DNA from: Breznakia blatticola
GTDB lineage: Bacteria; Bacillota_I; Bacilli_A; Erysipelotrichales; Erysipelotrichaceae
Length of the DNA stretch: 19,874 nt
Assembly: GCF_004365815.1 (NCBI RefSeq)
Contig: NZ_SODD01000046.1
Location: 1-19,874, forward strand
Direction: 5' to 3'
Shown: piece by piece, positions 1-19,874 of the stretch
How the letters are laid out: each line of letters opens with the position of its first letter
Position numbering within the stretch: position 1 is the first letter of the stretch
The notes under the pieces: generated by a model
Told to the model about the DNA's origin: nothing
Seen by the model: only the letters and a program-made list of their open reading frames with translations
Databases searched by the model: none
Position numbers and translations under genes: made by a program

Positions 1-1
1 T

Positions 2-94
2 TACCTTCCTTATTTTTATATGGTAATCTTACATTTCAATGTATCATCATACATGTAACAATCTAAGTTAGGTGCGCATCGGTTGAATTAAGCC
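2..94. repeat. Left copy of a perfect 93-bp terminal inverted repeat. Probably the inward-facing end of an IS or transposon copy that continues beyond the window.
   Basis: I reverse-complemented 19782..19874 by hand and it matches 2..94 at 93/93 positions. Identity stops exactly at 94/19782. The outer end reads AAATAAGGAAGGTA, which looks like an SD, so a gene may start just outside the window. An internal ATGTAT-catc-ATACAT hairpin is present. Confidence 0.9.
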
Positions 95-448
95 TGATGG
101 TTTGTAATGTAAATCTGCAGCTGTCTTACGATAAAAACTAAAATCTCTTTCTCCATTAGCTGCTAATGATACAAATGCAAGCGACGTATCATAATCTTTA
201 CTTTGGTGTAGTTCACTTGTATCCACACCGACTTTTTGTAACGTTTCAACAATATGATCACCAAATGCATCTGCACCTACTTGACTTAAGATTTTAGCAT
301 GACCTCCAAGTTTAGCAACTGCACCTGCTACATTGGTTGGTGCTCCACCAACGACTCGATGAAAATTTTCAACATCTTTAAGTCGACACCCTTTTTCTAC
401 TGGGATAAAATCAATTAACGCTTCTCCGATTGCACATAGATTTTTCAT
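68..448 (-). pseudogene. Truncated PfkB-family sugar kinase (fructokinase-like). Only the N-terminal ~118 codons remain, fused to 8 repeat-encoded codons and a stop.
   Basis: MKNLCAIGEALIDFIP...GGAPTNVAGAVAKLGG is a typical PfkB N-terminus. A GAGGAG SD lies upstream of the ATG at 448. The kinase reading frame runs into the inverted repeat at 94 and ends GLIQPMRT*. Full-length family members are roughly 300 aa. Confidence 0.8.
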
Positions 449-476
449 AACGATACTCCTCAATCCTTTTTATTTA

Positions 477-505
477 ATTGTACACGAATTCTAGTTATCA
501 TCCAA
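477..505 (-). promoter_or_regulatory. Candidate sigma-A promoter of the kinase stump (TTGGAT-N17-TACAAT).
   Basis: On the minus strand, TTGGAT is at 500..505 and TACAAT at 477..482 with a 17-nt spacer. This sits ~30 nt upstream of the ATG. Confidence 0.4.
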
Positions 506-513
506 TGGCTGTA

Positions 514-545
514 ACAAAAACAAGTCAGCATTTTTACTGACTTGT
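514..545 (-). terminator. Rho-independent terminator after the P-type ATPase gene.
   Basis: Perfect 9-bp stem ACAAGTCAG/CTGACTTGT (520..528 and 537..545), followed on the minus strand by TTTTTGTT. Confidence 0.8.
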
Positions 546-552
546 CATTTCT

Positions 553-3207
553 TTATTTCATTTTAAATACTCGTTTTAGTACATATACAATGATGGTTGC
601 AGTAATTGAGAATGTTAGGATATAGATCCAGTTTTCAACTCCTAATGGAACTGTTCCAAGTACATTATTGAATAATGGTACATAGATTGCCACAAGTTGT
701 AATCCTACAGCAACAAGCATTGCTATAATCATGGATTTGTTTTGTAGTAATGTTTTATCCAATCCAAACACTTTTACACGACGTACATTTAGTATATGTA
801 ACAACTGCATGATTGCCATCAGTGTAAACGTTGTCGTTTGTGCTTCAATAACAGAAAATCCACGATGTAGTGAAAATGCATAGATTCCAAATGCAGTGAA
901 TCCTAGCACAAGACCACTAAGTAAAATTGGCTTTAAGAAACTTGCAGATAATAAACCTTGCCCTTTCTTTCGTGGTGGTTGATCCATAATGTTATCCTCA
1001 GCTGGTTCAAAACCTAATGACATTGCTGGTAAGATATCAACAACCAAATTCAGCCATAAAATATGTAAGGGTAATACTGGTAAATCTGGAATCAGGAATA
1101 ATAAACTTAAGATAATCGAAGTAATCTCTACCATATTACATGAGAATAAATAGTAGACAAACTTACGTATATTGGCAAAGATAATACGTCCTTCTTTAAC
1201 TGCATCTACAATCGTAGAAAACTTATCTGTTGTAAGAATCATATCAGCAGCTTCTCTAGCTACTTCGGTTCCTCTTACACCCATTGCAATACCAATATCT
1301 GCACCATTCAAAGCAGGAGCATCATTCACACCATCACCAGTCATTGCGACAACTTCATTGGTTTCTTGTAATATTTTAACAATATCCAATTTATTACGTG
1401 GACTTACTCTGGCAAATACACCTGTACGACATACATCATGATCAAACTTTTGCGTATGTTTTGAATTATCAAACTCAAATCCAGTCATAACATTATCATA
1501 CGAGCGCATCCCAATTTGCTTTGCGATAACACTTGCCGTTTGTGGGTGATCTCCAGTAATCATTTTTACACGAATTCCTGCTCTTTGACATAAACGAATG
1601 GATTCCATAACATCTTTTCTTGGTGGATCAATAATTCCTACCAACCCTAGAATCCGTACATTTCCATCACATGTATTGTTATAGATGGCTTCATTATCAT
1701 CAATCATCCCAATAGCTAGTACACGCCAACCGTGACTTGCCATTTCCTCGTTTTTTTCACGAATCTTTGCTTTTGTATCTTGGTCATGATGTGACATATC
1801 AAGTAGTACATCTGGACCACCTTTAATAAAGGTGTATTTTTGATCACCTTTTTGATACAACGTAATCATATATTTTAATTTTGAATTAAATGGAATTTCA
1901 TCTAATCGTTCAAAACCTTCATCGTGTAAACGATTTCGACTATAGCCTACCTTATCACCAAGTACAATAAGTGAACCTTCTGTAGGATCACCAATAATAC
2001 TGTACTCTCCATGCTCCTCTTGTAGGGTGGCATTTGTATTCAGTACTGCTGCATATAAAAACTGTTGTAGTTTTTCAACACTGTCCACTGTAATTGCTGT
2101 CCCATCATGTAAGATTTGTCCAGTTGGTTCATATCCACCACCTGTAACTTCATATTCTTGTCCATTTAATAAATAGATGGACTCTACTGTCATTTGATTT
2201 TCGGTAAGTGTACCTGTTTTATCCGAACAAATAACACTTGTACTTCCTAGTGTTTCTACTGCATCTAATGTTTTCACTAACGCTTTATGTTCACTCATAC
2301 GTGACATACCTTTGGCCAGTGTAATTGTGGATACTGCAGGCATTGCTTCTGGAATCGATGCAATTGCTAGTATTAAGGCAACTTGTAAAACAAATGATAA
2401 TTCACGTCCTGTTGCTAATCCAATCACAATTACAATTAGAGCAAATAGTGCTGCAATTCCAATAAGTAAACGTCCAAGCTTATCAAGTTCTTGATTTAAT
2501 GGACTTGCCTCTTTTTTGGTTTCTTTTAGTAAACTTGAGATTTGCCCAACTTCACTATAACTTCCGGTAGCAGTAACAATTGCTTTAGCATTTCCTCTAG
2601 TAACTGCTGTTCCTGCAAACACATAGTTCTTACGGTCACCTAAAGATACATCTTCATCAAAGGTTAGACTTGCATCCTTACTTGAAGCAATACTTTCACC
2701 AGTTAAACTTGCCTCCATACAAGCTAAGTTTGTTGATTCAATTAATCTAGCATCCGCACTAATTGCATCTCCACTTTTTAAAGATAGTAAATCTCCTGGA
2801 ACCAAATCTTCTGAATTAATTTCCATCAACTGTCCATCACGAACAACATCTGCTTTTGTCTTAATCATGCTTTGTAGTGACTCGACAGATTTTTGTGCCT
2901 TTAGTTCTGAAACAAACCCAAAAGCAACTGCTATAAAAACAGCAATTAGTACTGCAATTCCTTCTACTGTATCACCTAGCGCAAACGAAATTGCTGCTGC
3001 TGCTAACAATAAATATACAATAATATTATTCAGTTTTTCTAACAATATATGCCATGGTGATACTTTTTTACCACCTTCTAATACGTTCTTTCCATACTCT
3101 TCTAAGCGCGTTTCTACTTCCTTACTTGTTAGTCCAACTTGACCATCACTTCCTATATCGACGATGACCTGATCGATCTCACATTTATAATATTCCTTAT
3201 TTGCCAT
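553..3207 (-). CDS. Cation-transporting P-type ATPase (P2-type, Ca2+/Mg2+-like), 884 aa.
   Basis: Motifs present: TGES (SLTGES), the phosphorylation site CSDKTGTLT, MITGDH, GDGVNDAPAL, and about 10 TM segments. I chose the start at MANKEYY (ATG at 3207) because GGAAAGGAAG lies upstream. The 30 extra codons in the ORF track are discarded. Confidence 0.93.
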   Translation of the reverse strand: MANKEYYKCEIDQVIVDIGSDGQVGLTSKEVETRLEEYGKNVLEGGKKVSPWHILLEKLNNIIVYLLLAAAAISFALGDTVEGIAVLIAVFIAVAFGFVSELKAQKSVESLQSMIKTKADVVRDGQLMEINSEDLVPGDLLSLKSGDAISADARLIESTNLACMEASLTGESIASSKDASLTFDEDVSLGDRKNYVFAGTAVTRGNAKAIVTATGSYSEVGQISSLLKETKKEASPLNQELDKLGRLLIGIAALFALIVIVIGLATGRELSFVLQVALILAIASIPEAMPAVSTITLAKGMSRMSEHKALVKTLDAVETLGSTSVICSDKTGTLTENQMTVESIYLLNGQEYEVTGGGYEPTGQILHDGTAITVDSVEKLQQFLYAAVLNTNATLQEEHGEYSIIGDPTEGSLIVLGDKVGYSRNRLHDEGFERLDEIPFNSKLKYMITLYQKGDQKYTFIKGGPDVLLDMSHHDQDTKAKIREKNEEMASHGWRVLAIGMIDDNEAIYNNTCDGNVRILGLVGIIDPPRKDVMESIRLCQRAGIRVKMITGDHPQTASVIAKQIGMRSYDNVMTGFEFDNSKHTQKFDHDVCRTGVFARVSPRNKLDIVKILQETNEVVAMTGDGVNDAPALNGADIGIAMGVRGTEVAREAADMILTTDKFSTIVDAVKEGRIIFANIRKFVYYLFSCNMVEITSIILSLLFLIPDLPVLPLHILWLNLVVDILPAMSLGFEPAEDNIMDQPPRKKGQGLLSASFLKPILLSGLVLGFTAFGIYAFSLHRGFSVIEAQTTTFTLMAIMQLLHILNVRRVKVFGLDKTLLQNKSMIIAMLVAVGLQLVAIYVPLFNNVLGTVPLGVENWIYILTFSITATIIVYVLKRVFKMK

Positions 3208-3317
3208 TGACCCACTTCCTTTCCTTCTTCCTACAAATATCGTAACAAACATGTAATCATATACAAAATGATATGCATAATAAATTATAACTATCACAAT
3301 GTTTCACAAAGTAGAAA

Positions 3318-3348: not shown

Positions 3349-3358
3349 CTTAATCTGG

Positions 3359-5383
3359 TTATTTTGAATGAATAATCTTCTTTGCGCCCACATACGTAAC
3401 CACAAAGTAACATCCATAAATTAGTAATAATATGGCACATGCAATTGCACTACCTTCAAGAATCGAACTTCTTCCAGTTGTCATAATAATCGCATCAACA
3501 AAATGGATTCCCACAAAACTATGTACTAGTGCTAATGCTAATGGAATAAAGAAGTAAATACATAATTGTTTAAATAATGCACGGTTCATCATCACATCAT
3601 CTGCACCAATTTTATTTAAAATCAAGTACCGTTTTTTATTGTCATTTGCCTTTGTGAGTTGTTGAAGTGCTAATAGTGTCACACTACTTAACATGAAGAC
3701 AATCCCTAAATAGATACCAACATATGTCACAATAACTGACGTACCTTTATTTCCATCATATATATCTTGACGTGTCGATGCAAAGTAAGAAAAGGTATAT
3801 CCCTTGTTAGAGAATTGTTCAGTTATTTCGTTTTCTAATGCTTCTCGAATTGCATCATGTTTCGTTTCATCTTTTGCATTTATATTAATTGCATGATAGA
3901 TAAATGTCGGATCATCAAATTCGATTTCATCATCAACGACACAAATAAATGAATTGTCGATAAGTGGTGATGATGCTAATGTCATTTCAGGTAAATCGAT
4001 TTCTTTTAAACTAAATGTATATCCTTGAACATTCAATGTACGTTTATTTGCAATATCTTTGCTTATTGGATCACGTAGTTGTACAGATGTTGTATAAGGA
4101 ACAAGCTCATTTTTCTTTATCTCAATGGGTTTGTAGCCTTGATCAGTAAGCACATCATTGAAATCACTTTCATGTATAAAACTAAGTTCTTCATAGTTAG
4201 ATTGTTCTGTCATTCCAATTTCTCTATTTGCATAATGATTCACTACATGCTCAAATACGTTATTGTATTCTGCTGTAGGAATTCCTATAGCTACCTTTTT
4301 TTGAACCCGAAGTATGCTTGCATCATCTTTGACACTATCTGGTAATTGTAATTCGATGACTTCAATTGGTGTATCTTCACGATATTGTCTATATTCAACA
4401 CTTACATCATATGGTGTTGATTGTTTTAATGATTTATTAATCGTTGCATTCAAACTCAATCCTGTACATAACGCTCCAATTGATAATAGAAGTAGAATAC
4501 AAACAAAGCTCATTGAAATGAAGTTGCTTTTAATACTTGCATTTACCTCTTTCAAGACAAACATATTTAAACCTTTGTAGTATAGTTTTTTACTGCTCGA
4601 TACAAAGCGTAACATAAATCCTGCCAAACTTAGGAAGAATAGTAGTGTTCCAATACAACCAAAAGAAACTACAAATATGAATTTATTACCAAGCACATTA
4701 AATGGATCGGTCCACGCATGGTAATAAGAAACACCTAAACAAACTAATGAAACAATAAAAATTAGTACATAAATACCCACGTATTTAATGTGAATCTCTT
4801 CATTTTTGCGGTCTGCATATAATAAATCAATCAGTTTAAATTTTGATAGTATTACTATATTTAGTAACATGGCAAGAAAAAATACCAGACCAAAACATAA
4901 GATTGTCAGTATTAGTGCCTCAAATGAGAACACAAAACGATAGTTCAGTTGCACTTCAAACAAACTTGCAGTTGCGATCGTTAACACTTGTGATAATGCA
5001 ATGCCAAATACAATTCCAACAACTAGTGATAATAAACCAATAATAAATGTTTCATATAATAGAATTCTTGCCATCTTGGATTTTTCCATTCCAAGTAGCA
5101 TATACGTTCCAAACTCTTTTTTTCTACGCCGTACAAGAAAACTATTGGCATACATAATAAGAAAGCATAGTACTACAGCTACAAACACTGACATATATCC
5201 CATGATTTCTGTAAGTAACTTCATAATTTCTGATTGTGAAGTTGTCATTTCAATGACAGCTTGTTGTTCCGTAAATGAGTTAAATGCAAAGAATAAACAA
5301 ACCGAGAACGCTAAAGTAAGAAAGTAAATAAAATAATCTTGAAAACTCTTACGTACGTTCTGTAAAGCAATTTTAAAGTACAT
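3359..5383 (-). CDS. BceB-type ABC transporter permease (FtsX family, large extracellular loop), 674 aa.
   Basis: The size, the N-terminus MYFKIALQNVRKSF..., the multi-TM layout and a long hydrophilic insert of ~200 aa match Bce-type permeases. The start is the ATG at 5383, 9 nt after AGGAGG. It overlaps the upstream ATPase gene by 11 nt. Confidence 0.9.
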   Translation of the reverse strand: MYFKIALQNVRKSFQDYFIYFLTLAFSVCLFFAFNSFTEQQAVIEMTTSQSEIMKLLTEIMGYMSVFVAVVLCFLIMYANSFLVRRRKKEFGTYMLLGMEKSKMARILLYETFIIGLLSLVVGIVFGIALSQVLTIATASLFEVQLNYRFVFSFEALILTILCFGLVFFLAMLLNIVILSKFKLIDLLYADRKNEEIHIKYVGIYVLIFIVSLVCLGVSYYHAWTDPFNVLGNKFIFVVSFGCIGTLLFFLSLAGFMLRFVSSSKKLYYKGLNMFVLKEVNASIKSNFISMSFVCILLLLSIGALCTGLSLNATINKSLKQSTPYDVSVEYRQYREDTPIEVIELQLPDSVKDDASILRVQKKVAIGIPTAEYNNVFEHVVNHYANREIGMTEQSNYEELSFIHESDFNDVLTDQGYKPIEIKKNELVPYTTSVQLRDPISKDIANKRTLNVQGYTFSLKEIDLPEMTLASSPLIDNSFICVVDDEIEFDDPTFIYHAININAKDETKHDAIREALENEITEQFSNKGYTFSYFASTRQDIYDGNKGTSVIVTYVGIYLGIVFMLSSVTLLALQQLTKANDNKKRYLILNKIGADDVMMNRALFKQLCIYFFIPLALALVHSFVGIHFVDAIIMTTGRSSILEGSAIACAILLLIYGCYFVVTYVGAKKIIHSK

Positions 5384-6140
5384 TAGAGATGTCACCTCCT
5401 AATAAGGTAACAACTTCAATGATTTGATCAAAAAACTGTTTACGACTTTGATTTCCTTTGTAGATTTCATTGAAGATCTTCCCATCTTTAATAAATAATA
5501 TACGATCACAGAAACTTGCAGTAAACGTATCATGTGTAACTAGTAAGATGGTACTGTTATACTCTTTATTTAACTTTTCTAATGATTCAAGTAACATTCG
5601 ACTTGATTTACTATCTAATGCTCCTGTTGGTTCATCTGCTAAAATCAAACTTGGATTATGAACCAAAGCACGTGCAGCAGCAACTCTTTGGCGTTGTCCT
5701 CCTGACATTTGATATGGATATTTTGGAAGTACTTCTTCAATATCTAATTTCTTTGCAACTTCTTTTACTTGTGCATCAATCTTCTTTGGATTTACCTTTT
5801 GAATCGTCAATGCTAGTGCAATATTTTCAAATGCTGTTAGTGTATCAAGTAAGTTAAAGTCTTGGAAAATAAATCCCAATTGTTCGCGACGAAATTTACT
5901 TAGCTTTTGTTTTTTCAATTCTGTAATATTTGTATCATCAATTACAATATTTCCACTTGTTACTTTATCAATAGTAGACACACAGTTTAATAAGGTTGTC
6001 TTTCCAGATCCACTTGGACCCATGATTCCAACGAATTCACCTTCGTTTATATCAAAGGTAATTCCGTCAATTGCCTTTGTTAAGTTATCCTTATTCCCAT
6101 AATATTTCTCAATATTTTGAACATTTAATACTTGTTTCAT
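5373..6140 (-). CDS. ABC transporter ATP-binding protein (BceA/MacB-like), 255 aa.
   Basis: Walker A GPSGSGKTT, signature MSGGQRQR, Walker B LILADEPT. An AGGAGGAG SD precedes the ATG. Confidence 0.95.
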   Translation of the reverse strand: MKQVLNVQNIEKYYGNKDNLTKAIDGITFDINEGEFVGIMGPSGSGKTTLLNCVSTIDKVTSGNIVIDDTNITELKKQKLSKFRREQLGFIFQDFNLLDTLTAFENIALALTIQKVNPKKIDAQVKEVAKKLDIEEVLPKYPYQMSGGQRQRVAAARALVHNPSLILADEPTGALDSKSSRMLLESLEKLNKEYNSTILLVTHDTFTASFCDRILFIKDGKIFNEIYKGNQSRKQFFDQIIEVVTLLGGDISNVL

Positions 6141-6229: not shown

Positions 6230-6254
6230 AAAGAAAAAAGGTGCGATAGCACCT
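6227..6254 (-). terminator. Rho-independent terminator after the small DUF6440-like gene.
   Basis: Stem AGGTGC-tatc-GCACCT, followed on the minus strand by TTTTTTCTTTC. Confidence 0.75.
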
Positions 6255-6457
6255 CACTGATGAGAATCAATTTCTCCCATCATATATTTTGTAATAACGA
6301 CATTCCCATGACTATCTAAGAGTGGTGTTAATCCACTTCCTTCAGGAGTATTGACCAATAAATAATTGACCCCCGTAATTTGATCTTCAAGAATACGGAT
6401 ACCTTGAAGTGTTGTTTCTTCGTGGACAATAACAAATCGTTCCTTATCTGTACGCAT
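6254..6457 (-). CDS. Small conserved hypothetical protein (DUF6440-like by recollection), 67 aa.
   Basis: MRTDKERFVIVHEETTLQGIRILEDQITGVNYLLV...GLTPLLDSHGN. The ATG at 6457 is preceded by an AGGAGGA SD. The longer track ORF overlaps the upstream gene and is rejected. Confidence 0.7.
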   Translation of the reverse strand: MRTDKERFVIVHEETTLQGIRILEDQITGVNYLLVNTPEGSGLTPLLDSHGNVVITKYMMGEIDSHQ

Positions 6458-6465
6458 GATTCCTC

Positions 6466-6654
6466 CTAGTGAAATAAAATAAAGTAGATAACATAGACCC
6501 AACCAAGCAAACCGTGAACGATTGCCCAACCAATACTATGCCATGTTGTATAGCTTATCACCATTGCTAGTGCACTACCAAAGGACAATCCTTGTTTGAT
6601 CGTCTTATTCACAATTGTTGTTTTGCCATCTGCACGGCGTTCATATTCTGACAT
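6466..6654 (-). CDS. Small hydrophobic membrane protein of unknown function, 62 aa.
   Basis: One or two predicted TM segments (FGSALAMVISY..., IGWAIVHGLLGWVYVIYFILF). An AGAGGAGAAG SD is present. The gene is tightly packed between the HK stop and the next gene's SD. Confidence 0.6.
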   Translation of the reverse strand: MSEYERRADGKTTIVNKTIKQGLSFGSALAMVISYTTWHSIGWAIVHGLLGWVYVIYFILFH

Positions 6655-6665
6655 AGCTTCTCCTC

Positions 6666-7679
6666 TTACAATAAGTTTTTATAAAATCGACTATTGGGAA
6701 TTGTTATACTCACACAAGTACCTTTATGTACTGTACTATCTAGTCGTATAGACATATAAAGCTTGTCACATAACGCTTTACATAAATACAATCCCATACC
6801 TGTTGCTTTCTTTTCCAATCGTCCATTTTCACCAGTAAATCCACGATCAAATACTCGAGAAACATCTTTTGGATCAATTCCTATTCCTGTATCTGAAATA
6901 CGCACTTCAAGATCTTGATCATGTACTACAGTATCAATATGGATAGATCCACCAACATCTGTATACTTTAATGCATTATCTAATATCTGATGCAAAATGA
7001 ATTCTAACCATTTACTATCCATCGTGATCATGTGATCACTATTCGTAATTGATAATTTAATTTCTTTATAAATGAATCGCTGCTTTAAACGACGTACAGC
7101 TGCATTGATACTATCACTAAGCTGGATTTCTTTTAATACATAATCGCGTGAAGGATCACTACTTTTTGCATAATATAAAGCTTGCTCAATATAATCATTC
7201 ATCCGCTCGATTTCCAAGTCCAAAGCTTTACTTATTCCACTTGGATGATTGGTATTCATCAATTTCGCAGCGGTCAATGGACTTTTTATCTCATGAATCC
7301 ACATTTCGATATATTCTTTATAATCTTTTTCACGTTTCTCATATGTTGCAATTCGATCATTGTAGTTTTTATTAATTTCTTCTAAGGTTTGATATAGAAT
7401 TCTACCTTCTTGAAATTCTGGTTCATCAATAACTTCGATTAATAAACTTTTTTGATCCAGTCGTTCCAACTGGTCTTTAAGTTGTTTATAGTACCCATTT
7501 TTTTGTCGATACTCAATAAATAAAAAGCCAAAGATAAATGACCATATACTAACAAGAAAAAGTATAACGGTATCTATGCTTAGTTTAGAAGCAAGTAAAA
7601 AGAATCCTTGCAACGCACTTAACAATGCACCTAAAACTAAAATATAAAAATGCTCTTTTAGATATGTATACTTACTCAT
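6666..7679 (-). CDS. Intramembrane-sensing histidine kinase (BceS-like), 337 aa.
   Basis: Two N-terminal TM helices are separated by a very short loop. An H-box (IHEIKSPLTAA) and HATPase_c motifs (DNALKYT, DTGIGI, GTGMGL) are present. There is an 8-nt overlap with the RR gene. Confidence 0.92.
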   Translation of the reverse strand: MSKYTYLKEHFYILVLGALLSALQGFFLLASKLSIDTVILFLVSIWSFIFGFLFIEYRQKNGYYKQLKDQLERLDQKSLLIEVIDEPEFQEGRILYQTLEEINKNYNDRIATYEKREKDYKEYIEMWIHEIKSPLTAAKLMNTNHPSGISKALDLEIERMNDYIEQALYYAKSSDPSRDYVLKEIQLSDSINAAVRRLKQRFIYKEIKLSITNSDHMITMDSKWLEFILHQILDNALKYTDVGGSIHIDTVVHDQDLEVRISDTGIGIDPKDVSRVFDRGFTGENGRLEKKATGMGLYLCKALCDKLYMSIRLDSTVHKGTCVSITIPNSRFYKNLL

Positions 7680-8343
7680 TAATTAAATACCCCATACCAC
7701 GTTTTGTTTCAATAAAGTTTTCCAAATCAATATATGCAAGTTTCTTGCGTAGACGATTCATGTTTACCGTTAAGGCATTATCATCCACAAACATATCACT
7801 ATCCCACATCTCCGACATCAACTCTTCACGTAAAACAATACGATTTTTATGTTTGAATAATGTCGTCATAATGCGCAGTTCATTTTTTGTGAGTTCAATA
7901 CTTTGTTTATTGTAAGTAAGTGTACTTTTTGCGACGTCCAGTTGGACACCCGCAACAAATAATTTACTACCATTATCCCCTTCATAGCTACGATTTAATA
8001 ATCGTTCCATGCGTGCAAGTAAAATTTGTAAGTTATATGGTTTTGAGACAAAATCATCTGCGCCCATATGCATACTCATCAACTCATCTAAATCTGTATT
8101 ACGACTGGTAACAATGATCATTGGTACATTGCTTTGCTTACGTACTTCTTTGGCAATATGATTCCCATCAATACCCGGCAAGTTCAAATCAAGCAAAATC
8201 AAGTGTACATCACTATCAAGAATTTGCTTGCTCACATCACAAAAATCCACAACGGTTTGGACATCATATCCATTGGTTTGTAGAAACGTTGCAAGTTCAT
8301 CACGAATATTAATTTCATCTTCAACAATTAAGATTTTATACAT
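7672..8343 (-). CDS. OmpR-family response regulator (BceR-like), 223 aa.
   Basis: A receiver domain (MYKILIVEDE..., LILLDLNLPGIDG) is followed by a winged-helix C-terminus (TKNELRIM...ETKRGMGY). I chose the start at MYKILIV (ATG at 8343). No SD is visible. Confidence 0.88.
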   Translation of the reverse strand: MYKILIVEDEINIRDELATFLQTNGYDVQTVVDFCDVSKQILDSDVHLILLDLNLPGIDGNHIAKEVRKQSNVPMIIVTSRNTDLDELMSMHMGADDFVSKPYNLQILLARMERLLNRSYEGDNGSKLFVAGVQLDVAKSTLTYNKQSIELTKNELRIMTTLFKHKNRIVLREELMSEMWDSDMFVDDNALTVNMNRLRKKLAYIDLENFIETKRGMGYLINE

Positions 8344-8370
8344 ATTTTTATTATACATGAATTTTGTGGT

Positions 8371-8399
8371 AAAGCGACAAAAACGAGCATTCGCTCGTT
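8371..8399 (-). terminator. Rho-independent terminator after tethered sigma gene 1.
   Basis: Stem AACGAGC-gaat-GCTCGTT (8382..8399), followed on the minus strand by TTTGTCGCTTT. Confidence 0.65.
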
Positions 8400-8402
8400 C
8401 TC

Positions 8403-9716
8403 TCATGATTCATCATGTAATGTAATCTCTAACTCATTTCCTGCATAATCAGAAATATAAAGTACACCTGTTACTCCATATGGACAAGTTAGAATCATTT
8501 GATTCAATGATGGATGTATCGTTATTTCTTTGTTGATACGTACTCCATTTTCATAATAGCGAATACTTTCAAAGTTAACTTGTGATGCATCATCAGAAAC
8601 ATAAATTGTATACGTTGTTCCATCAATTTCATACCCTTGAACTACCGGACTATGCATATCAAATGTAGAAATACTCACGATTCGCTCATCAATTTGTTTG
8701 CCATCCTTCATTAGAGTTACACTATAACTTCCATTACTTGCGATGACTAGACTCTCTTGATTATTCACAAGAATTTGATCATACTCCATATTGGATGTAG
8801 TTACAGTTAGTGTAATTGGCTGATTTGTCCAATTTGTTGGATGCTGAATATCTGTAATACTTGCGAGTTCTTGTACAACAGGTTGTACATCTTGTATTTC
8901 AGGTGCTACTGCTGGCTGTTTTTCTTCTTGATTTAACATGATTGCACCTACAACACCACTTACTCCAATCGTGGAAGCAAGTGCAATTTTTGCCCCTACA
9001 CCAATTCCTACTTTACTTCCTGCTGCTGCACTTCCTACACCTATTGCACTTGTTTGTAATGCGAGATTGATCACTGGAGCATGAATATTCTTTGCTGCTG
9101 AAGCATATGCAACTTGAATTAGCATTGGTGAAATTGCAAATCCCGGTAATGATTTTGCACTAATCCCCTGTTTTTCCAACATTACTTTTAGTTTACTACG
9201 AAGATGATTCAATCGTGAATATACCGTACCTTCAGGTATTTGTAAAATGTATGCAATCTCACTTACTTGAAGTTCATCATAGTATCGCAAGAGTGCAACA
9301 TTTCGTAATGACGCATTTAAAGAATGAATGCAATTATATACGATTGCTTGCATCTCTTTATTCTCTATGATTTCTTTTGCTGTTTGTTGATTTACATCTT
9401 CGAAATCTTCCACGCGAACATCATCTCCTAAATCCAGTAGTTTCTTTTTCTTACGCTCATAATCATGGCAAATATTCATTGTAATACGTTTCATCCAAGT
9501 ATAGAATGCTTCAGGACTCTCCAATGTATCAATCTTGTTGTAAATACGGATAAATACATCTTGAACAACATCTTTTGCTGTATGTTCATTATGAAAATAA
9601 TCCCATGCTGTAAAATATACATTGTTTGCATATATCTCGTACAATTTCTGAAATGCCTCTTGATCGTTTTGCTTAACTCGATTCACTAACTCTACTACTT
9701 CTCTTTTCTCTTTCAT
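8403..9716 (-). CDS. Membrane-tethered ECF-type sigma-70 family protein (sigma region 2 + region 4, TM segment, ~175-aa extracytoplasmic domain), 437 aa.
   Basis: Region 2 reads DVVQDVFIRIYNKI...FYTWMKRITMNICHDY. The region 4 HTH reads LLRYYDELQVSEIAYILQIPEGTVYSRLNHLRSKLK. A Gly/Ala-rich TM segment lies at about 8934..9002, followed by a beta-rich C-terminal domain. The ATG at 9716 follows GAGGGGTG. Confidence 0.85.
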   Translation of the reverse strand: MKEKREVVELVNRVKQNDQEAFQKLYEIYANNVYFTAWDYFHNEHTAKDVVQDVFIRIYNKIDTLESPEAFYTWMKRITMNICHDYERKKKKLLDLGDDVRVEDFEDVNQQTAKEIIENKEMQAIVYNCIHSLNASLRNVALLRYYDELQVSEIAYILQIPEGTVYSRLNHLRSKLKVMLEKQGISAKSLPGFAISPMLIQVAYASAAKNIHAPVINLALQTSAIGVGSAAAGSKVGIGVGAKIALASTIGVSGVVGAIMLNQEEKQPAVAPEIQDVQPVVQELASITDIQHPTNWTNQPITLTVTTSNMEYDQILVNNQESLVIASNGSYSVTLMKDGKQIDERIVSISTFDMHSPVVQGYEIDGTTYTIYVSDDASQVNFESIRYYENGVRINKEITIHPSLNQMILTCPYGVTGVLYISDYAGNELEITLHDES

Positions 9717-13208: not shown

Positions 13209-13394
13209 TTCACACATTTCCTTGATTTATTTTATTTATAACGGCATAGCGCCACTTCACTAATTATTGCTACCCTTCAAATCGAATATCATGTATCGAA
13301 TAATAGAAATTTTGTCCCCCTTAGTCTTTGATATAGCTTTAGCTTTCAATGTTGGTAAGGAGGACATTTCATTTATGTTAAGAAATATTTATGT

Positions 13395-16300
13395 TTATTT
13401 CTTTTGTAGTTTCTTGCGTGCAAATAATAAGCAAATAACAAACCCGCTCATCATTACACAAGCAAGTAATGCATTAGCTGCACTTACATCACCTGTTTTC
13501 ACACTTGGAATCACATCTAATTCCTTCACTGGAGATGTTGATGGTAATTCTGTAAATGGATCTTCAGGTTTTTCTGGTGTTGGTGGAGTTTCTTTTGGAT
13601 CTTCCACTTTCTTCGTATTATATGCTTTTACAACAATCACACCAGTTGTATCTTTTGTAACTTCAAATTCTACATTGGTTGCATCTAATACATATCCTTC
13701 AGGTGCTCCTACTTCTTTAAAGTAGTATGAACCTTCTGGTAAGTCTTTTACTTCAATGCGTCCATCTGCATTTGTTGTATATACCTCATCATTTACTTTT
13801 GTTGCATTTCCTTTTTCATCTACAACGTATAGATCAAATTCAGCACCCTCTAATGTAATCGCTTCATTACTATCTGTATCATACTTAATTAACTCTACAT
13901 CTGCAACATTTGGTGGAGTTTTCGTATTGTATGCTTTTACGATGACTTTCGTATTTGTGTTTTCATCAATTTCAAACATCACTTTTGCATCATCTAAGTC
14001 ATATCCATTTGGTGCTTTTACTTCTTTAAAGTAATATGAACCTTCAAGTAGATCTTCAACTGTGATTTTTCCATCTTTATCTGTAACATATGGAGTTGTG
14101 TTTACTTTCGTATCACCATTAGTAGCATCCACGACATATAAATCAAATTCTGCTCCTTCTAATGTTACTGATTCATTTGTATCTGCGTCATATTTAATCA
14201 GTTGAACATCTTCTGTATGTGGTGGGATTTTTTTATTATATGCTTTCACTTGCATCGTTGCTTTATCATCTTTGCTGATTGTAAATGGAATATGTTTGTC
14301 ATCTAGCTCATATCCTGAAGGAGCTTTTACTTCTTTAAAGTAATATGAACCTTCAAGTAAATCATTTACTTCGATTTCACCATACATATTTGTTGTGTAT
14401 GGTGTGCTATTCATTTTTGTATCACCATTATTATCCACTAGATATAAATCAAACTCAGCACCTTCAAGCGTAGTTGTTTCATTGCTGTCTAGATCATATT
14501 TTGTTAATTCTACACCACCAGTATATATTTTTTGGTTATACACAGTTGTATACACAACCTTTTGTGCATTTGCTTGTTCGATAACTTCAAATACAATCGG
14601 TTCATTAGACTCTACACCATTGTGTTGATAAACCGCACCGCTCATTTCATAATTTGGTGCTGCTTTTACTTCCTTCCAATAGTAGTAACCATCTTCAAGT
14701 CCACTAACAGTAATCATTCCCCAACTATTTGTAGCTCTCTTTGCAACGAGTGTATCACTACTACTTGGTGTTGTTCCATTTGCTACTTTATATAATTCGA
14801 ATTCTGCATTTGCGATAGTCAGTTGATTCTCTTCATCTTTAGTTGCTAAATCGTATTTATACAGTCCAGCACTTCCTTTTGCACCACCAATAATGGTTCC
14901 ACTATATTCGCTAAACGAAAGTTTAATCTCATTTGATTGCTCACTATTGTTGTTCCAGTATAAGTGTGCTTGATTCGTATATTCTGCACCTTCTGCCATT
15001 CCCTCAGGAAATCTTGCTTTAAAGTTTACACGGTATGCAGGAATTACATAATCAACAGCTGCTAACTCTTTATCTAAATACTCAGCTTGTTTATCTGTAT
15101 AGTAACGGTATTTTACGTCTACACCATTTTCCTCTTTTTCATACGTTAATGTCTTTAAATATGCCAAGAATTTACTATCACCGTTTGTTGGTTCTTGCGC
15201 CTTTACTGCTGGTAAATCTGTGAACTTAGCACCAACATATGATTTACTCGTTGGATCTTTATCTCCTAAATCACCAAAATAAACTATCATTGTTGTTTTA
15301 TCTAAACCGTTTGTATCTTTTTCACGATATAAAACAAGCGATTGACGATCCACATTCTCTAAAAATGCTGCCTTAAATTCATCATAGCTTAGACCAGTTG
15401 CAAATGAATAGTTATCATTTAACTTTAATGTCTCTGTACTGTCTTTATGATATTCGACTTTATCAAAGATACCTCTGGTATCTGCTCCATTTGTTTTATC
15501 TTCTGTATATAAAGCATACCATGCATATTGGCGATCTGAATATGCTCCTATTCCACCATTGTCAATATTTCGTTCTTCATAATCCAATTCATTTCCATCT
15601 TTATCTGTAGTCGCAAATACACGCATAATATGTTGAATTGAAATGGAATCAATTGTTTGGTTATAAGTCAATTCATCTTCCATGTACATTTTTGCACGTG
15701 CATTTGTAATTTTTCCAGACTCATCTTTTCTTCCATTGTATAAAGATATATTGTAATCTACACCTAAGTTAATCGTCCAACTTGTATACCCTTCTTTCTC
15801 ATAGAAGACACCTTCTTTTGAGATTTTTGTAGAATTATCATATGGATTTGCCCCAGTATCTTCAACTGGTTGTTTTTCTGGTGTTTGAATGTTACCTCCA
15901 TCAAGAATCGCATTACCATTGATTACAAGTCCTGAATCTAAACCATTTCCAATAATTTTACCTTCTGCACTTACTGATCCACCTTTAACTACATATGGAC
16001 TATTTGGATCTTCTCCAGCAGGAAGTTCTAAAATTGTAATTGCAATTGTTGTTGTTCCCGTTTTGTCATCTGTTTTAATGGTAAATTCTGCAATTTTATT
16101 ATTCGATCCATCATATAATGGAAATGATTTATCTGCAGTATCAAATACAAGTCCAAACCCTTGACCTGGTACTTTCGAATTATTAATTTCTTCAATTACA
16201 AATTTAAATGTATCGCCTTCTTTAAGCAAATTATCACCATCTGTAACATTTGTATATAAAGCTTCCCAAGCAATATTTAGTCTAACTTGACTATAGTTTT

Positions 16301-16517
16301 TTACTTGATAATTACCTTCTAGGTCAACCAAATCTTTGATATCCACAAAATTTAGTCCATTTGTTACTTCCACAGTTACCGTTGGTGCTTTAATCTTGTG
16401 ATATGCATTACCGTAATCTACATCACCTTCTGCTGCTAGTGCTGTTCCACCACTAGCAAATATCATGTTAATCATCATAAAAGCCGCTAATAAAACACTA
16501 AAAAATTTCTTCTTCAT
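13395..16517 (-). CDS. Large cell-wall-anchored adhesin: signal peptide, ~510-aa N-terminal adhesin region, four SpaA/Cna-B-like (prealbumin-fold) repeats and a sorting signal, 1040 aa.
   Basis: The signal peptide ends ...GTALA|AEG. The repeats carry LEGAEFDLY.VD...G.I.V.DL.EGSYYFKEVKAP.GY. The C-terminus carries PSVKTGD, a hydrophobic segment and RKKLQKK. An AAGGAGA SD is present. Confidence 0.9.
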   Translation of the reverse strand: MKKKFFSVLLAAFMMINMIFASGGTALAAEGDVDYGNAYHKIKAPTVTVEVTNGLNFVDIKDLVDLEGNYQVKNYSQVRLNIAWEALYTNVTDGDNLLKEGDTFKFVIEEINNSKVPGQGFGLVFDTADKSFPLYDGSNNKIAEFTIKTDDKTGTTTIAITILELPAGEDPNSPYVVKGGSVSAEGKIIGNGLDSGLVINGNAILDGGNIQTPEKQPVEDTGANPYDNSTKISKEGVFYEKEGYTSWTINLGVDYNISLYNGRKDESGKITNARAKMYMEDELTYNQTIDSISIQHIMRVFATTDKDGNELDYEERNIDNGGIGAYSDRQYAWYALYTEDKTNGADTRGIFDKVEYHKDSTETLKLNDNYSFATGLSYDEFKAAFLENVDRQSLVLYREKDTNGLDKTTMIVYFGDLGDKDPTSKSYVGAKFTDLPAVKAQEPTNGDSKFLAYLKTLTYEKEENGVDVKYRYYTDKQAEYLDKELAAVDYVIPAYRVNFKARFPEGMAEGAEYTNQAHLYWNNNSEQSNEIKLSFSEYSGTIIGGAKGSAGLYKYDLATKDEENQLTIANAEFELYKVANGTTPSSSDTLVAKRATNSWGMITVSGLEDGYYYWKEVKAAPNYEMSGAVYQHNGVESNEPIVFEVIEQANAQKVVYTTVYNQKIYTGGVELTKYDLDSNETTTLEGAEFDLYLVDNNGDTKMNSTPYTTNMYGEIEVNDLLEGSYYFKEVKAPSGYELDDKHIPFTISKDDKATMQVKAYNKKIPPHTEDVQLIKYDADTNESVTLEGAEFDLYVVDATNGDTKVNTTPYVTDKDGKITVEDLLEGSYYFKEVKAPNGYDLDDAKVMFEIDENTNTKVIVKAYNTKTPPNVADVELIKYDTDSNEAITLEGAEFDLYVVDEKGNATKVNDEVYTTNADGRIEVKDLPEGSYYFKEVGAPEGYVLDATNVEFEVTKDTTGVIVVKAYNTKKVEDPKETPPTPEKPEDPFTELPSTSPVKELDVIPSVKTGDVSAANALLACVMMSGFVICLLFARKKLQKK
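13614..14876. repeat. Intragenic tandem repeats encoding the SpaA/Cna-B-like domains. Three units have a 309-bp period and a fourth is more divergent.
   Basis: The marker string acttctttaa recurs at 13711, 14020 and 14329, which gives exact 309-bp spacing. The antisense shadow ORFs on the plus strand repeat the same peptide (YP.GA.TSLK). Confidence 0.85.
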
Positions 16518-16671
16518 AACTTGTCTCCTTATCTTTCACACATACAATTCACACACTGACCAAGTTTGTAATTCACTGCCTACTTTGCTTACACATTCAA
16601 AGTGCAACGAGAGTTCCATATCCTAGAAATCTATCTTTGAAGTCATCTACACAAACAGTTATCTATCAAAA

Positions 16672-16717
16672 CACTAAAAAAGAGTGTCTATGCTATGTTG
16701 AACAACAAGACACTCTT
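16672..16717 (-). terminator. Strong rho-independent terminator ~155 nt upstream of the large adhesin start codon.
   Basis: Perfect 10-bp stem AAGAGTGTCT/AGACACTCTT (16680..16689 and 16708..16717), followed on the minus strand by TTTTTAGTGTTTTG. Confidence 0.8.
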
Positions 16718-16834
16718 AAAAAATGTTGCCATTTTTCACCTAGAGAGTTTCCTTACCCACACATAACACACTGATATTTACACACTTTAACTCAATTTTG
16801 TATATCTTTCCCACTCCACACAAGTTCAAGTATT

Positions 16835-16976
16835 GAAAAGCAACCTTTAATTTTGAAGATTGCTTTCAGACTTCAAATTAAATGTGTGTATGGAAGTCCT
16901 GAAGTTCAACTCTTTATTTTCTTTTTTCTATGAGTATCGCTTCATTTATATAGACTTCAATTTTTCTAAAATCTTC
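16835..16976 (-). ncRNA. Copy B of the ~140-nt repeated two-hairpin element. It has its own upstream promoter, and its second hairpin lacks a U-tract.
   Basis: GAAGATTTT...GTCTAtaTAAatGAAgcgaTACTCA...GACTTC[catacacacatttaattt]GAAGTC, followed by GAAAGCAA/TTGCTTTTC. It is colinear with A and C. Confidence 0.45.
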
Positions 16977-16981
16977 GGAAA

Positions 16982-17010
16982 TTTATAATTTTTTTTCATT
17001 TTTTATTCAA
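16982..17010 (-). promoter_or_regulatory. Candidate sigma-A promoter (TTGAAT-N17-TATAAA) driving element B.
   Basis: On the minus strand, TTGAAT is at 17005..17010 and TATAAA at 16982..16987, with a 17-nt spacer. The predicted TSS falls at the GAAGAT where the A/B/C homology begins. Confidence 0.5.
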
Positions 17011-17061
17011 ATTTAATACCATTACTATTTGATTGATAGTTTTGATTGTTGTAAGGTGTAT

Positions 17062-17097
17062 TTCAATCAAAACAAAAGAACAATTTCTCGTTCTTTT
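17062..17097 (-). terminator. Rho-independent terminator downstream of the Cna-type adhesin gene.
   Basis: Stem AAAAGAAC-gagaaatt-GTTCTTTT followed by GTTTTGATTG on the minus strand. Confidence 0.7.
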
Positions 17098-17107
17098 TAA
17101 AATATAT

Positions 17108-17151
17108 AATCGTATCTTATTATCATATTTAACAGTATATAAGATACGATT
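17108..17151. other. Perfect 13-bp inverted repeat with an 18-nt loop, function unknown.
   Basis: aatcgtatcttat (17108..17120) pairs with ataagatacgatt (17139..17151). It lies ~100 nt after the Cna gene stop codon. Confidence 0.7.
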
Positions 17152-17253
17152 GTTATTGTCCACTAAGTTACATTATATAACAATTAGTTATAACTAAATA
17201 AACATATTGTTAATAACCTATAGTTTTAAACGTGAGAGTAACACTCATGTTTC

Positions 17254-19506
17254 TTATACTTTGCGTCTTCTACGAATTGCTACTAGTATACATAGAGATA
17301 TCCCACTAACAATCATCATTGCATATAGTATCGCTTTTGGACTTTGATCACCAGTACTCACTTTGCTTGAGGATACCACTGATGGATTAATAAGCAATTC
17401 CTTCTCTGGTTTCTTTGAAGGATTTGCTGGTGTCACAATTTCGGGTTGTTTAATCACTGGTGTTTCTACTACTGGTGGTTGTTCTATCATTGGATCTTCT
17501 GGTACAACAACTTCCTTCTTGTACGTATTAATAATCGTAAAATCCGTTTCTGTATTTTTTATTACTTTGGATGTATAGTTATTTGCTACTTCAAGTTCCA
17601 CAACTGTATAGGTTACCGATTTCCCATTAACTAACAACGGTAAATCATTCCATGTATATGTCCAATGATCTTGTTTTGTCACTATTGCATCAAATGTCGC
17701 AATTGCTACATGTTCATCTGTAGACTGAATCAGTTGAACCTTGATTTCATCAGGACGAATATCTAAATCATCATTCTCCCATTCTTTACTTACTGAAATG
17801 GATGTAAGTGGAAGTTTATATGTATTGGTAATTGTATAGTCATTTTTTGCATGTTCCTCAACACTTGCTGTGTAATTTTCTGCTACATGAATTTCATTTA
17901 CCGAATATGTAACTTCTTTATTTCCTTGAAAAGCAGGTAAATCATCCCATTGATATTCCCACACATTGTTGAGATCTTTTTCTATTTTTACGGTGTCCAC
18001 AATTGATGTATTTCCATCAACTGATTTTTGTAATTGCACTTCAACAAATGATGGACGTACCCACTGATCATCATCACCAGCCCACTTCTTAGTTACATGT
18101 ACACTGGTTCTTGGTACTTGATACGTATTTACAATCGTGAAATTATTAAATGAATTTTCAATTACTGTCTCAGTATAGTTATTTGGTACACTTGCTTCAT
18201 GTACTGAATATGTTACATATGTAGTACCTTCCAGCATTGGTAAATTGGTGAACTCATATTGCCATTGATTTTTTGCATTCAAATCAATTTGACCAATTTG
18301 CACTGGGCTTCCACCTTTTAGTGTTTTGTATAAATTCACAGTTACAGTTTCTGGATGTGTAATTTCTGGATCATCACTTTCCCATACTTTATGAACTTTC
18401 ACGCTAGTTGATGCATCACCAGAACCAACTCCACCAGTTACAAGACGTTGATCATATGCTTCGATTGTCCCAGATTCATAGTTATCTCCTTCAATCGTAG
18501 CTTTATTTAAATAGATTTGTGAAACTTTATTGTCTAAGATGCGTGTAGAATACTTAATATATAAAGATTTTCCATCCGCTTTCGCTTCTTGTTTTGTTGC
18601 TTCATCATTTGGGGTAAATACTCCACCGTTTTCTGGTAATGCTGTGGATGCACCACTAACAAGATTACCCAAATGTACTGTAAATCCATCACTTTGAAGT
18701 ACAAATCGCTCTGGATTTGTATTTGATGTATAGTATCCAAAATACTTCCAAGATGATGCTCCTTTATCATTCCAATCAATACGTGCGACTTGCACTGTGA
18801 TTGCTGGCTTTGTTGGATCATCTACTACAAGTTCATGTTTTCCAATAATTTCATCAATGACACTCGCATTGTAAATATCCTCAGCAGCAACATTTACACG
18901 AATCGTCCAATCGATAGTATTGGTTGTCGTATTCGCTGTTCCCCACTTTGTGATTTTTTCATCACGTGGTTCATAATTTGCTTTACCTACCCAAACATCT
19001 TGACTACTTGTATCACTGAATTGAAGTACAAGATCTTCAGCACCTGCTACTTCATTGCGATCCCATGATGCAACAACAAAAAAGTATCCTTTACGATTCT
19101 GCTTATTCTTAAAATAATCATTGAATGTAATGGTAATACTCTTATCTGATGCATTCATACTTGCATTTGCAACTACAATTTCCGTTTCATTATTTTCTGC
19201 GTCAATTTCTTTAAGCTCAAATTCAAGATTTTTCACACTTAATTGCGAAGGTAGTTGAATAACTACAGTATCTCCACTATTTACTTCATAAGTATCATCA
19301 AATGCATATTCATAATACACACGCATCGAATCATAGTATCCATAGTATTGACTATCTTCACCTGTATACGTTGTTACTTTTCCACTTACGATAAAATCGT
19401 TTTGTGAAATGCTACCTTGTGCTTCTGTAGCTAGTATTTTTCCCGTGTACGAGAACATTCCTGCAAGCACAAAAAAAACTACCACAATTTTACTTATTTT
19501 CCTCAT
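17254..19506 (-). CDS. Cna-type collagen-adhesin-like surface protein: signal peptide, collagen-binding-type A region, three Cna-B repeats, Pro-rich stalk and a sorting signal, 750 aa.
   Basis: The A region has SGDTVVIQLPSQL and IDWTIRVNV. The Cna-B repeats read V.K.W..DD...RP..V.V.L......W.Y.W.DLP......V.Y.V.E..V...Y. The C-terminus carries KVSTGD, a hydrophobic segment and RRRRKV. An AAGGAGGAA SD is present. Confidence 0.92.
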   Translation of the reverse strand: MRKISKIVVVFFVLAGMFSYTGKILATEAQGSISQNDFIVSGKVTTYTGEDSQYYGYYDSMRVYYEYAFDDTYEVNSGDTVVIQLPSQLSVKNLEFELKEIDAENNETEIVVANASMNASDKSITITFNDYFKNKQNRKGYFFVVASWDRNEVAGAEDLVLQFSDTSSQDVWVGKANYEPRDEKITKWGTANTTTNTIDWTIRVNVAAEDIYNASVIDEIIGKHELVVDDPTKPAITVQVARIDWNDKGASSWKYFGYYTSNTNPERFVLQSDGFTVHLGNLVSGASTALPENGGVFTPNDEATKQEAKADGKSLYIKYSTRILDNKVSQIYLNKATIEGDNYESGTIEAYDQRLVTGGVGSGDASTSVKVHKVWESDDPEITHPETVTVNLYKTLKGGSPVQIGQIDLNAKNQWQYEFTNLPMLEGTTYVTYSVHEASVPNNYTETVIENSFNNFTIVNTYQVPRTSVHVTKKWAGDDDQWVRPSFVEVQLQKSVDGNTSIVDTVKIEKDLNNVWEYQWDDLPAFQGNKEVTYSVNEIHVAENYTASVEEHAKNDYTITNTYKLPLTSISVSKEWENDDLDIRPDEIKVQLIQSTDEHVAIATFDAIVTKQDHWTYTWNDLPLLVNGKSVTYTVVELEVANNYTSKVIKNTETDFTIINTYKKEVVVPEDPMIEQPPVVETPVIKQPEIVTPANPSKKPEKELLINPSVVSSSKVSTGDQSPKAILYAMMIVSGISLCILVAIRRRRKV
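17518..18411. repeat. Three tandem Cna-B domain-encoding repeats (~97-100 codons each).
   Basis: Protein repeats at aa 366-463, 467-563 and 568-663, counted by hand from the start at 19506. Confidence 0.75.
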
Positions 19507-19573
19507 GGTTCCTCCTTATAAAACACACTTTGGTTTCACACACCAATTGTCTCTTTCAAGACTCAGCGAGGCT

Positions 19574-19603
19574 ATTATACTATGTTCATTTCAATTTTTC
19601 CAA
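19574..19603 (-). promoter_or_regulatory. Candidate sigma-A promoter of the Cna-type adhesin gene (TGGAAA-N17-TATAAT).
   Basis: A perfect TATAAT lies on the minus strand at 19574..19579 and TGGAAA at 19597..19602. This is ~68 nt upstream of the ATG and downstream of the element C terminator. Confidence 0.55.
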
Positions 19604-19621
19604 TGTAATAATATTTTTCTT

Positions 19622-19758
19622 TAAAACAAAAAGAAAAGCAATCCAGGTAGCATATGGATTGCTTTTCAAACTTCTTGGTGTGTGTGTGAAGTCCAAAAGG
19701 ATAACTCATATTGAGTACCCTTTCACCTTAATAGACTCTTTGAATAAAGAAAATCTTC
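19622..19758 (-). ncRNA. Copy C of the ~140-nt repeated two-hairpin element, ending in a strong intrinsic terminator.
   Basis: GAAGATTTT...GTCTAtTAAGgtGAAagGGTACTCA...GGACTTC[acacacacaccaa]GAAGTTT, followed by a perfect 13-bp stem GAAAAGCAATCCA/TGGATTGCTTTTC and TTTTTGTTTT. Confidence 0.5.
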
Positions 19759-19781
19759 ACTTTTTTCGATTATTTTATAAT

Positions 19782-19874
19782 GGCTTAATTCAACCGATGC
19801 GCACCTAACTTAGATTGTTACATGTATGATGATACATTGAAATGTAAGATTACCATATAAAAATAAGGAAGGTA
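19782..19874. repeat. Right copy of the perfect 93-bp terminal inverted repeat.
   Basis: Exact reverse complement of 2..94. It abuts AT-rich non-coding DNA whose sequence aligns with the promoter region of element B. Confidence 0.9.

Follow-up and report, generated by a model that had tools for sequence, protein, structure and literature searches.

Features of the locus

The window, by which we mean the whole stretch of DNA analysed (positions 1-19874), is the entire contig C46 of a 98-contig short-read draft assembly of a gut bacterium with a genome of 2.46 Mb. At its left end lies a PfkB (fructokinase-like) sugar kinase gene (68..448, minus strand, as are the other genes of this paragraph), disrupted by an insertion sequence (IS) and recognised from profile matches and from a join across the junction. 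It is followed by a P-type cation ATPase gene of the Ca2+ type (P2A-like, 914 aa; 553..3297), assigned by profile search, a Bce-like ABC transporter (3359..6140), consisting of an FtsX permease (3359-5395) and an ATPase (5373-6140), and a two-component system (6666..8406), made up of a histidine kinase (6666-7679) and an OmpR-type response regulator (7672-8406). Profile searches also identified two paralogous long ECF-type sigma factors (8403-9767, 454 aa; 11877-13217, 446 aa), between which lies a 488-aa ORF (9861-11327) with no family match. The right-hand part encodes two wall-anchored surface or pilin-like proteins, one of SpaA/SpaH-EbpB type (13395-16517, 1040 aa) and one of Cna_B/collagen-binding type (17254-19506, 750 aa).

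The contig is bordered by two arms of 93 nt, at 2-94 and 19782-19874, that are 100% complementary and 19687 nt apart. A first-pass annotation of this DNA had described them as exact reverse complements, and an inverted-repeat comparison bears this out, the runner-up pair within the window being 34 nt long at 74%.

The insertion sequence

The 93-mer is found again at about 20 contig ends of the genome, and the element to which it belongs is present in full as contig C95. This is 1138 bp long and has a single transposase ORF (nt 100-1101, 333 aa) and terminal inverted repeats, beginning GGCTTAATTCAACC, that match at 14/14 positions at the tips and 19/24 overall. IRL stands at 20 contig ends, in stubs of 91-95 nt, and IRR at 20 others, the stubs of both kinds together ranging over 88-95 nt, and C46 stops at both ends because the assembler collapsed this multi-copy IS into C95. 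The length of 93 nt was set by the assembler and is not biological, the repeat proper being the element of 1138 bp. Where a short-read (de Bruijn graph) assembly collapses a repeat, a unique segment likewise ends on both sides in identical short stubs, which face opposite ways if the two copies of the repeat do, although here the variation in stub length (88-95 nt) does not correspond to a single fixed k.

The left stub occupies 1..94 on the minus strand (IS nt 94 to 1, identical to C95 nt 1-94), with IRL at 71-94 and the SD AAGGAAGG at 4-11 on the minus strand, and the transposase ATG falls 5 nt outside window position 1. The right stub matches C95 at 19782..19874 on the plus strand (IS nt 1-93), with IRL at 19782-19805 and the SD at 19865-19872, and here the ATG falls 6 nt past the window end. 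The first-pass annotation had read the outer ends as SD-like, suggested that identical outward-facing genes may begin beyond both edges and favoured inverted IS copies as the explanation; the presence of AAGGAAGG, the transposase ATG at IS nt 100 in C95 and the IRL stubs of one IS at both ends agree with each of these proposals.

The element is an insertion sequence of the IS1595 family. Its transposase matches PF12762 (DDE_Tnp_IS1595) with 56.7 bits (cut-off 27) over residues 139-291 and profile positions 1-150 of 153, and NF033547 with 127.2 bits (cut-off 75). An N-terminal Cys4 motif, CPCC...x18...CKDC, is visible at residues 44-69; the zinc-finger profile NF050000 scored 25.2 bits, under its cut-off of 28, and PF12760 gave no reported match. 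The N-terminal zinc-finger domain is expected in all IS1595 groups save IS1016. According to PMC8101967, which cites Siguier, Gagnevin and Chandler (2009), the family is characterised by an 8-bp target-site duplication (TSD), a single transposase and a zinc finger. Like the family, the present element is about 1.1 kb long, has one DDE_Tnp_IS1595 transposase and short IRs starting GG, and makes TSDs of 8 bp; its Cys4 motif may correspond to the N-terminal zinc finger.

Among the relatives detected, even the nearest share no more than 74% identity with the transposase, and a scan of species-representative genomes gave distant relatives only (35-53% identity, for example in a Solobacterium MAG). 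An exact-protein look-up held no record of this transposase, and blastn of the IS against a plasmid collection gave no DNA match. From its size, GGC terminus and apparent DDNK motif the element may be nearest to the ISPna2 group of ISfinder, and under the usual naming rule it would receive a new IS name. The repeat at about 40 contig ends appears to be a new member of the IS1595 family, the family itself being known. The element is probably transpositionally active, because about 20 identical copies are present with intact TSDs.

Insertion history

In all, 19 of the 20 IRL flanks pair uniquely with one IRR flank through a perfect 8-bp TSD, whereas 196 offset controls gave 0.005 matches on average and never more than 1. 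The match is exact at length 8 only, the duplications are mostly A/T-rich, and among the 20 IRL and 20 IRR flanks there are no cross-paired (inversion-type) TSDs. Transposase ORFs and TSDs were what the first-pass annotation had advised looking for, and both were found, with separate TSDs for each copy. The left insertion has the TSD TGATGGTT at 95..102 (plus strand), with its second copy on contig C1 beside an IRR stub; the right insertion has TTTATAAT at 19774..19781 (plus strand), with its second copy on contig C25, again beside an IRR stub. Because the TSDs match, the contigs are probably physically linked across each IS copy. The two particular copies that border the segment are likely to be full length, and the length of the border repeat is presumably 1138 bp. 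Seven contigs have the IS at both ends (four inverted, three direct), and inverted flanking is not special in this genome.

The remaining copy (1/20), between C9 and C41, is without a matching TSD, which implies that the genome has undergone at least one rearrangement associated with the IS or that one small contig was dropped. Such a contig, under 1 kb long, would read IRR-AATTTTTA...TTAAGGAT-IRL; if there is none, the missing TSD is probably due to a deletion between two copies in direct orientation.

At the left junction the kinase ORF comprises 118 native codons (448 down to 95), followed by eight IS codons encoding GLIQPMRT and a stop (94 down to 68), which confirms the earlier description of a gene truncated by the left copy after about 118 codons. 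When the C46 half is joined to the C1 flank, an intact 321-aa ORF is restored that matches the PfkB profile with 210 bits (positions 1-297 of 302) and a fructokinase model at 3-302 of 302. A congener (G003) has an uninterrupted kinase homologue across the junction, at 59.5% over 321 aa; this homologue has different neighbours, and the wider context of the left junction is without synteny support. The first-pass annotation had reasoned that an inversion would place the 3' part of the kinase gene beyond the right copy. It was found on C1, beyond the left copy, which on that criterion means that the segment was not inverted when the insertion took place.

The surface-protein genes go on past the right IS, where C25 carries a VWA surface-protein gene. 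Synteny with the congeners did not reach the right junction, so that here the TSD by itself carries the join; homologues of the VWA protein in congeners G002 and G003 adjoin long sigma genes and have no Cna_B neighbour. In the order and orientation given by the TSDs, all five chained contigs share the sign of their GC skew (-0.12 to -0.18) and their gene-strand bias.

We propose that the draft contig is bounded by two independently inserted IS1595-family copies and that the 19.7-kb segment is resident, a reading that we hold with high confidence. The two copies would have inserted independently and in opposite orientations, each with its left, transposase-proximal end toward the segment. The left copy would have landed in codon 118/119 of the PfkB gene, inactivating it, and the right copy in the space of about 360 bp that separates the Cna_B adhesin gene from the VWA surface-protein gene of C25. 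The order at insertion would have been C1(+) - IS(-) - C46(+) - IS(+) - C25(+), with the 19.7 kb between the copies being resident chromosome and not cargo.

The right copy had also been thought to remove the -35 region of a promoter. When the empty site is reconstructed, a promoter-like sequence at threshold level spans the point of the right insertion, which lends this some weak support; however, the best promoter-like site of the Cna_B gene, TTGGAA-18-TATAAT (19574..19603, minus strand; a consensus match only), lies 67 nt before the ATG and is left intact by the IS. The promoter homology said to start at TATAAA finds support only over an 11-nt A/T match, and the best local alignment of the adhesin upstream regions is short and weak (score 31), in a CACACACA-rich stretch. 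A hybrid promoter formed from TTGAAT of IRL and TATAAA was rejected, since the spacer in the junction sequence is only 8 nt.

Alternative histories

It is improbable that the 19.7-kb segment at present lies the other way round, or flips in part of the population, by recombination between the 1138-bp inverted IS copies. With inverted IS copies at both borders, the earlier suggestion that the copies are a substrate for homologous inversion holds in principle: perfect inverted repeats of 1.1 kb with 19.7 kb between them can serve RecA as a substrate, and since recombination within the IS leaves all flank/IS junctions unaltered, draft contigs would look alike in both orientations. Moreover, the TSD pairs prove only how the segment was arranged when the copies inserted. 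However, an un-inverted long-term state agrees with TSDs, GC skew and strand bias alike, an inversion would leave 13 genes that share one direction running against the dominant strand bias, and no site-specific recombinase family match was obtained among the 13 large ORFs. The segment probably retains its original orientation today. That the inverted copies drive recurrent inversion of the block in the population is highly improbable; if true, this would reverse 13 genes relative to replication and would act as a crude switch, uncoupling the Cna_B and SpaA-type surface-protein genes from the VWA gene that lies upstream of them.

The first-pass annotation had also suggested a composite transposon, in which the segment, together with both IS copies (about 22.0 kb in all), would have arrived as one unit. 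The block does lie between two inverted copies of an IS that appears to be active, and IS1595-family elements can form pseudo-compound transposons (PMC12561309). A close parallel is ISApl4 of Actinobacillus pleuropneumoniae, which belongs to the same family, has terminal IRs that match perfectly over 14 bp and 8-bp DRs rich in A/T, and is present in 39 copies (PMC12561309). In that system two copies form a real resistance transposon without individual DRs, and matched versus unmatched DRs separated simple insertions from the pseudo-compound transposon and an inversion (PMC12561309). The present IS resembles ISApl4 in its 14-bp matching IR tips, its A/T-rich 8-bp DRs and the many copies that break draft assemblies, although it is 1138 bp long compared with the 712 bp of ISApl4, which belongs to the IS1016 group and is without a zinc finger (PMC12561309). 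Unlike the ISApl4 resistance transposon, both IS copies here retain their own DRs.

A composite transposon should show a single outer TSD and individual IS copies without matched TSDs. Here each copy has its own matched TSD, the outer flanks share none (TGATGGTT vs TTTATAAT), and the kinase gene runs from inside the block over the left IS into C1, all of which refutes a composite origin. Although two copies of one IS flank the supposed cargo, this cargo is not foreign to its site: its GC content (33.5%, vs 34.1% for the genome) shows no compositional difference, and in GC skew and gene strand it is collinear with the neighbouring contigs. In addition, the surface-protein genes continue on C25, so that the block is not a self-contained unit. 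We consider arrival as one unit scarcely credible.

Finally, the chance that the inverted repeat is a pure assembly artefact, with no repeated element really adjoining this DNA, is negligible: the repeat does sit exactly at both contig ends, and stubs of assembler-determined length (88-95 nt) occur at 40 contig termini, but the stub forms the genuine terminus of an IS that is complete and encodes a transposase, and an artefact would not yield exact 8-bp TSDs common to the flanks and their partner contigs together with a gene split precisely at the junction.

Discussion

On this reading a false lead disappears: the adhesin, sigma, Bce and ATPase block is not a mobile unit. The TSD pairs also provide a scaffolding map of 19 joins, for example C45-C1-C46-C25-C18, which spans about 260 kb. 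Recent insertions have knocked out a sugar-kinase gene and divided an array of surface-protein genes. All copies are probably near identical owing to a recent burst, and about 20 identical copies in a 2.46-Mb genome of a gut bacterium point to such an IS burst, of a kind that is well known.

The terminal repeat and its insertion sequence

The first-pass annotation described a perfect 93-bp inverted repeat at the ends of the window and this was confirmed, with positions 2-94 and 19782-19874 being 100% complementary over 93 nt, while the runner-up inverted pair within the window spans 34 nt at 74%. This is a genuine repeat and well outside chance. A sequence search of the genome, a draft assembly of 98 contigs and 2.46 Mb, showed that the window is all of contig C46 and that the same 93-mer lies at the ends of about 20 other contig termini. 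On unique contigs these stubs measure 91-95 nt for the left, transposase-proximal terminal inverted repeat (IRL, n = 20 termini) and 88-95 nt for the right one (IRR, n = 20 termini), and this range of 88-95 nt means that the assembly set both the length and the perfection of the 93-nt repeat. Biologically, what is repeated is not 93 nt but a 1138-bp insertion sequence (IS), present in full as contig C95.

This element starts at its 5' end with GGCTTAATTCAACCGATGCGCACC, and its 3' end is an imperfect reverse complement of that start (14/14 over the first 14 nt and 19/24 over the first 24 nt). It contains a single ORF (nt 100-1101, 333 aa) with AAGGAAGG ahead of it, and the transposase ATG falls 5-6 nt past each edge of the window, as anticipated by the earlier proposal of identical outward-facing genes just outside both edges. 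The ORF matches Pfam DDE_Tnp_IS1595 (PF12762) at 56.7 bits (cut-off 27) and the NCBIfam IS1595 family transposase (NF033547) at 127 bits (cut-off 75), and residues 44-69 contain a CxCC...CxxC motif that resembles the IS1595-family zinc finger, although the NF050000 model falls slightly short of its cut-off of 28 at 25.2 bits. A published summary gives 8-bp target-site duplications, a single transposase and a zinc finger as traits of the family (PMC8101967, citing Siguier et al. 2009). The closest transposases are at most 73-74% identical and lie mostly on ~1.1-kb metagenome-assembly contigs, with one at a congener contig end; the nearest named relatives come from Erysipelotrichaceae-type MAGs. 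A search of a plasmid collection with the element DNA gave no match. The 1138-bp element adds a new member to the known IS1595 family. Among published elements ISApl4 is a close analogue: its 14-bp IRs are perfect, its 8-bp direct repeats are A/T-rich and it has 39 copies (PMC12561309). In a congeneric genome (G002:C15:3-503) a transposase 74% identical to that of C95 is likewise cut by a contig end, indicating that related IS1595-family elements break assemblies elsewhere in the genus.

The disrupted kinase gene and target-site duplications

The left IS copy truncates a PfkB kinase gene, which reads ...HYKPS and then GLIQPMRT*, as had been described. The missing 3' part, which the first-pass annotation suggested locating, was found on contig C1, beyond the left IS copy. 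When the empty site was rebuilt by deleting the IS and one copy of the target-site duplication (TSD) and fusing the window fragment to the C1 flank, an uninterrupted 321-aa ORF resulted that covers 1-297 of 302 positions of the PfkB profile (210 bits), compared with 1-116 (91 bits) for the window fragment alone. It spans the whole fructokinase model with a score under that model's cut-off, and it is therefore named here a fructokinase-like PfkB kinase. In a congeneric genome, an unbroken homologue runs across the junction (71% nucleotide identity, and 59.5% amino acid identity over all 321 residues).

To pair junctions, all were oriented on the IS and the 8 nt before IRL were compared with the 8 nt after IRR. 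Of the 20 IRL flanks, 19 each matched exactly one IRR flank. Repeating this at 196 offset positions yielded 0.005 matches on average and never more than 1; pairing was exact at length 8 only. The left junction of the window carries the TSD TGATGGTT on the plus strand (AACCATCA in IS orientation) and its partner is the right end of C1, while the right junction carries TTTATAAT and is partnered by the left end of contig C25. The chain inferred from the TSDs is C45(-)-IS-C1(+)-IS-C46(+)-IS-C25(+)-IS-C18(+). The sole IS copy without a matching TSD has its flanks at the left ends of contigs C9 (IRL flank AATTTTTA) and C41 (IRR flank TTAAGGAT). This could reflect a deletion between two directly oriented IS copies or, alternatively, two copies less than ~850 bp apart whose linking contig was lost to a 1-kb size filter; the smallest contig in the assembly is 1044 bp.

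Gene content and the right junction

All genes of the 19.7-kb block between the two IS copies lie on the minus strand. They comprise the truncated PfkB kinase, a P-type Ca-type ATPase, a Bce-like ABC permease and ATPase, a small DUF6440 protein (6254-6529), a histidine kinase and response regulator, a long ECF sigma factor (8403-9767, 454 aa), a 488-aa ORF (9861-11327) with no family match in Pfam or NCBIfam, a second long ECF sigma factor (11877-13217, 446 aa), a SpaA/SpaH-EbpB-type protein (1040 aa) and a Cna_B/collagen-binding-type protein (750 aa). The DUF6440 gene lies between the ABC transporter and histidine kinase genes, and the 488-aa ORF between the two sigma genes.

The sigma factors are paralogues of ~450 aa whose first 200 residues hold the sigma domain, followed by a C-terminal extension of ~250 aa that has no family match. 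Each adjoins a gene for a large secreted or surface protein, and in two congeners (loci L028 and L029) homologous long sigma genes lie directly upstream of a homologue of the VWA surface protein, which suggests a recurring module of long sigma factor plus surface protein. Across window positions 13395-19506 and C25:187-2445, VWA-domain, Cna_B/collagen-binding and SpaH/EbpB-type proteins are consecutive on one strand, a row that resembles a sortase-dependent pilus cluster with its tip, base and major pilins; the window contains no sortase gene. The right IS separates the first two genes of the row, VWA and Cna_B. Within the SpaA-type gene, three tandem 309-bp (103-codon) repeats (13612-14555, 60-77% identity) correspond to the prealbumin-like (SpaA) domains that recur in its product.

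It had also been proposed that the right copy of the repeat apparently removes the -35 region of a promoter-like sequence ahead of the adhesin gene. Once the empty site is rebuilt, the insertion point is straddled by a sigma-70-like match at threshold level (TCGAAA-16-TAAAAT, 9/12), 265 nt before the ATG, and the IS splits it. A better match (TTGGAA-18-TATAAT, 10/12; 19603-19574, minus strand) lies 67 nt before the ATG and is undisturbed. About two matches of such quality are expected by chance in a region of that size. The similarity between the upstream regions of the two adhesin genes, on which the proposal drew, is weak, and the right-copy transposase points away from the adhesin gene. The IS could affect adhesin expression, but this is unsupported.

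Origin of the block

Inversion of the block between the IS copies would be possible in principle. Recombination within two inverted copies flips the segment and leaves the flank/IS junctions unchanged, and the TSD pairs therefore record the arrangement when the copies inserted, which is not necessarily the present one. No cross-paired TSDs occur at any IS junction of the draft, although in a draft none would be expected to appear anyway. The kinase 3' part beyond the left copy argues against inversion before or during insertion. Moreover, the sign of GC skew and a strong minus-strand gene bias are common to all five contigs of the chain, and the skew data identify the un-inverted order as the long-term state.

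The proposal of a composite transposon was correct in that IS copies flank the window. A composite transposon moved as a unit would carry a single TSD, at its outer ends, and its inner junctions would bear no relation to the outer flanks. In this case each IS copy has its own TSD, the outer flanks differ and a resident kinase gene crosses the left IS, and we regard a composite-transposon origin as refuted. Further points against it are the GC content of the block, equal to that of the genome (33.5% vs 34.1%), and the skew and strand bias shared along the chain. Just past the right IS, C25 encodes a secreted surface protein (748 aa) with a VWA domain and a C-terminal membrane anchor, so that the surface-protein array runs on and the block is not self-contained cargo. 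Finally, seven contigs carry the IS on either side, four of them with the same IS end at both termini and three with opposite ends; inverted flanking is thus not unusual in this genome, which also counts against a composite transposon. In a draft genome rich in IS copies, such window ends are ordinary.
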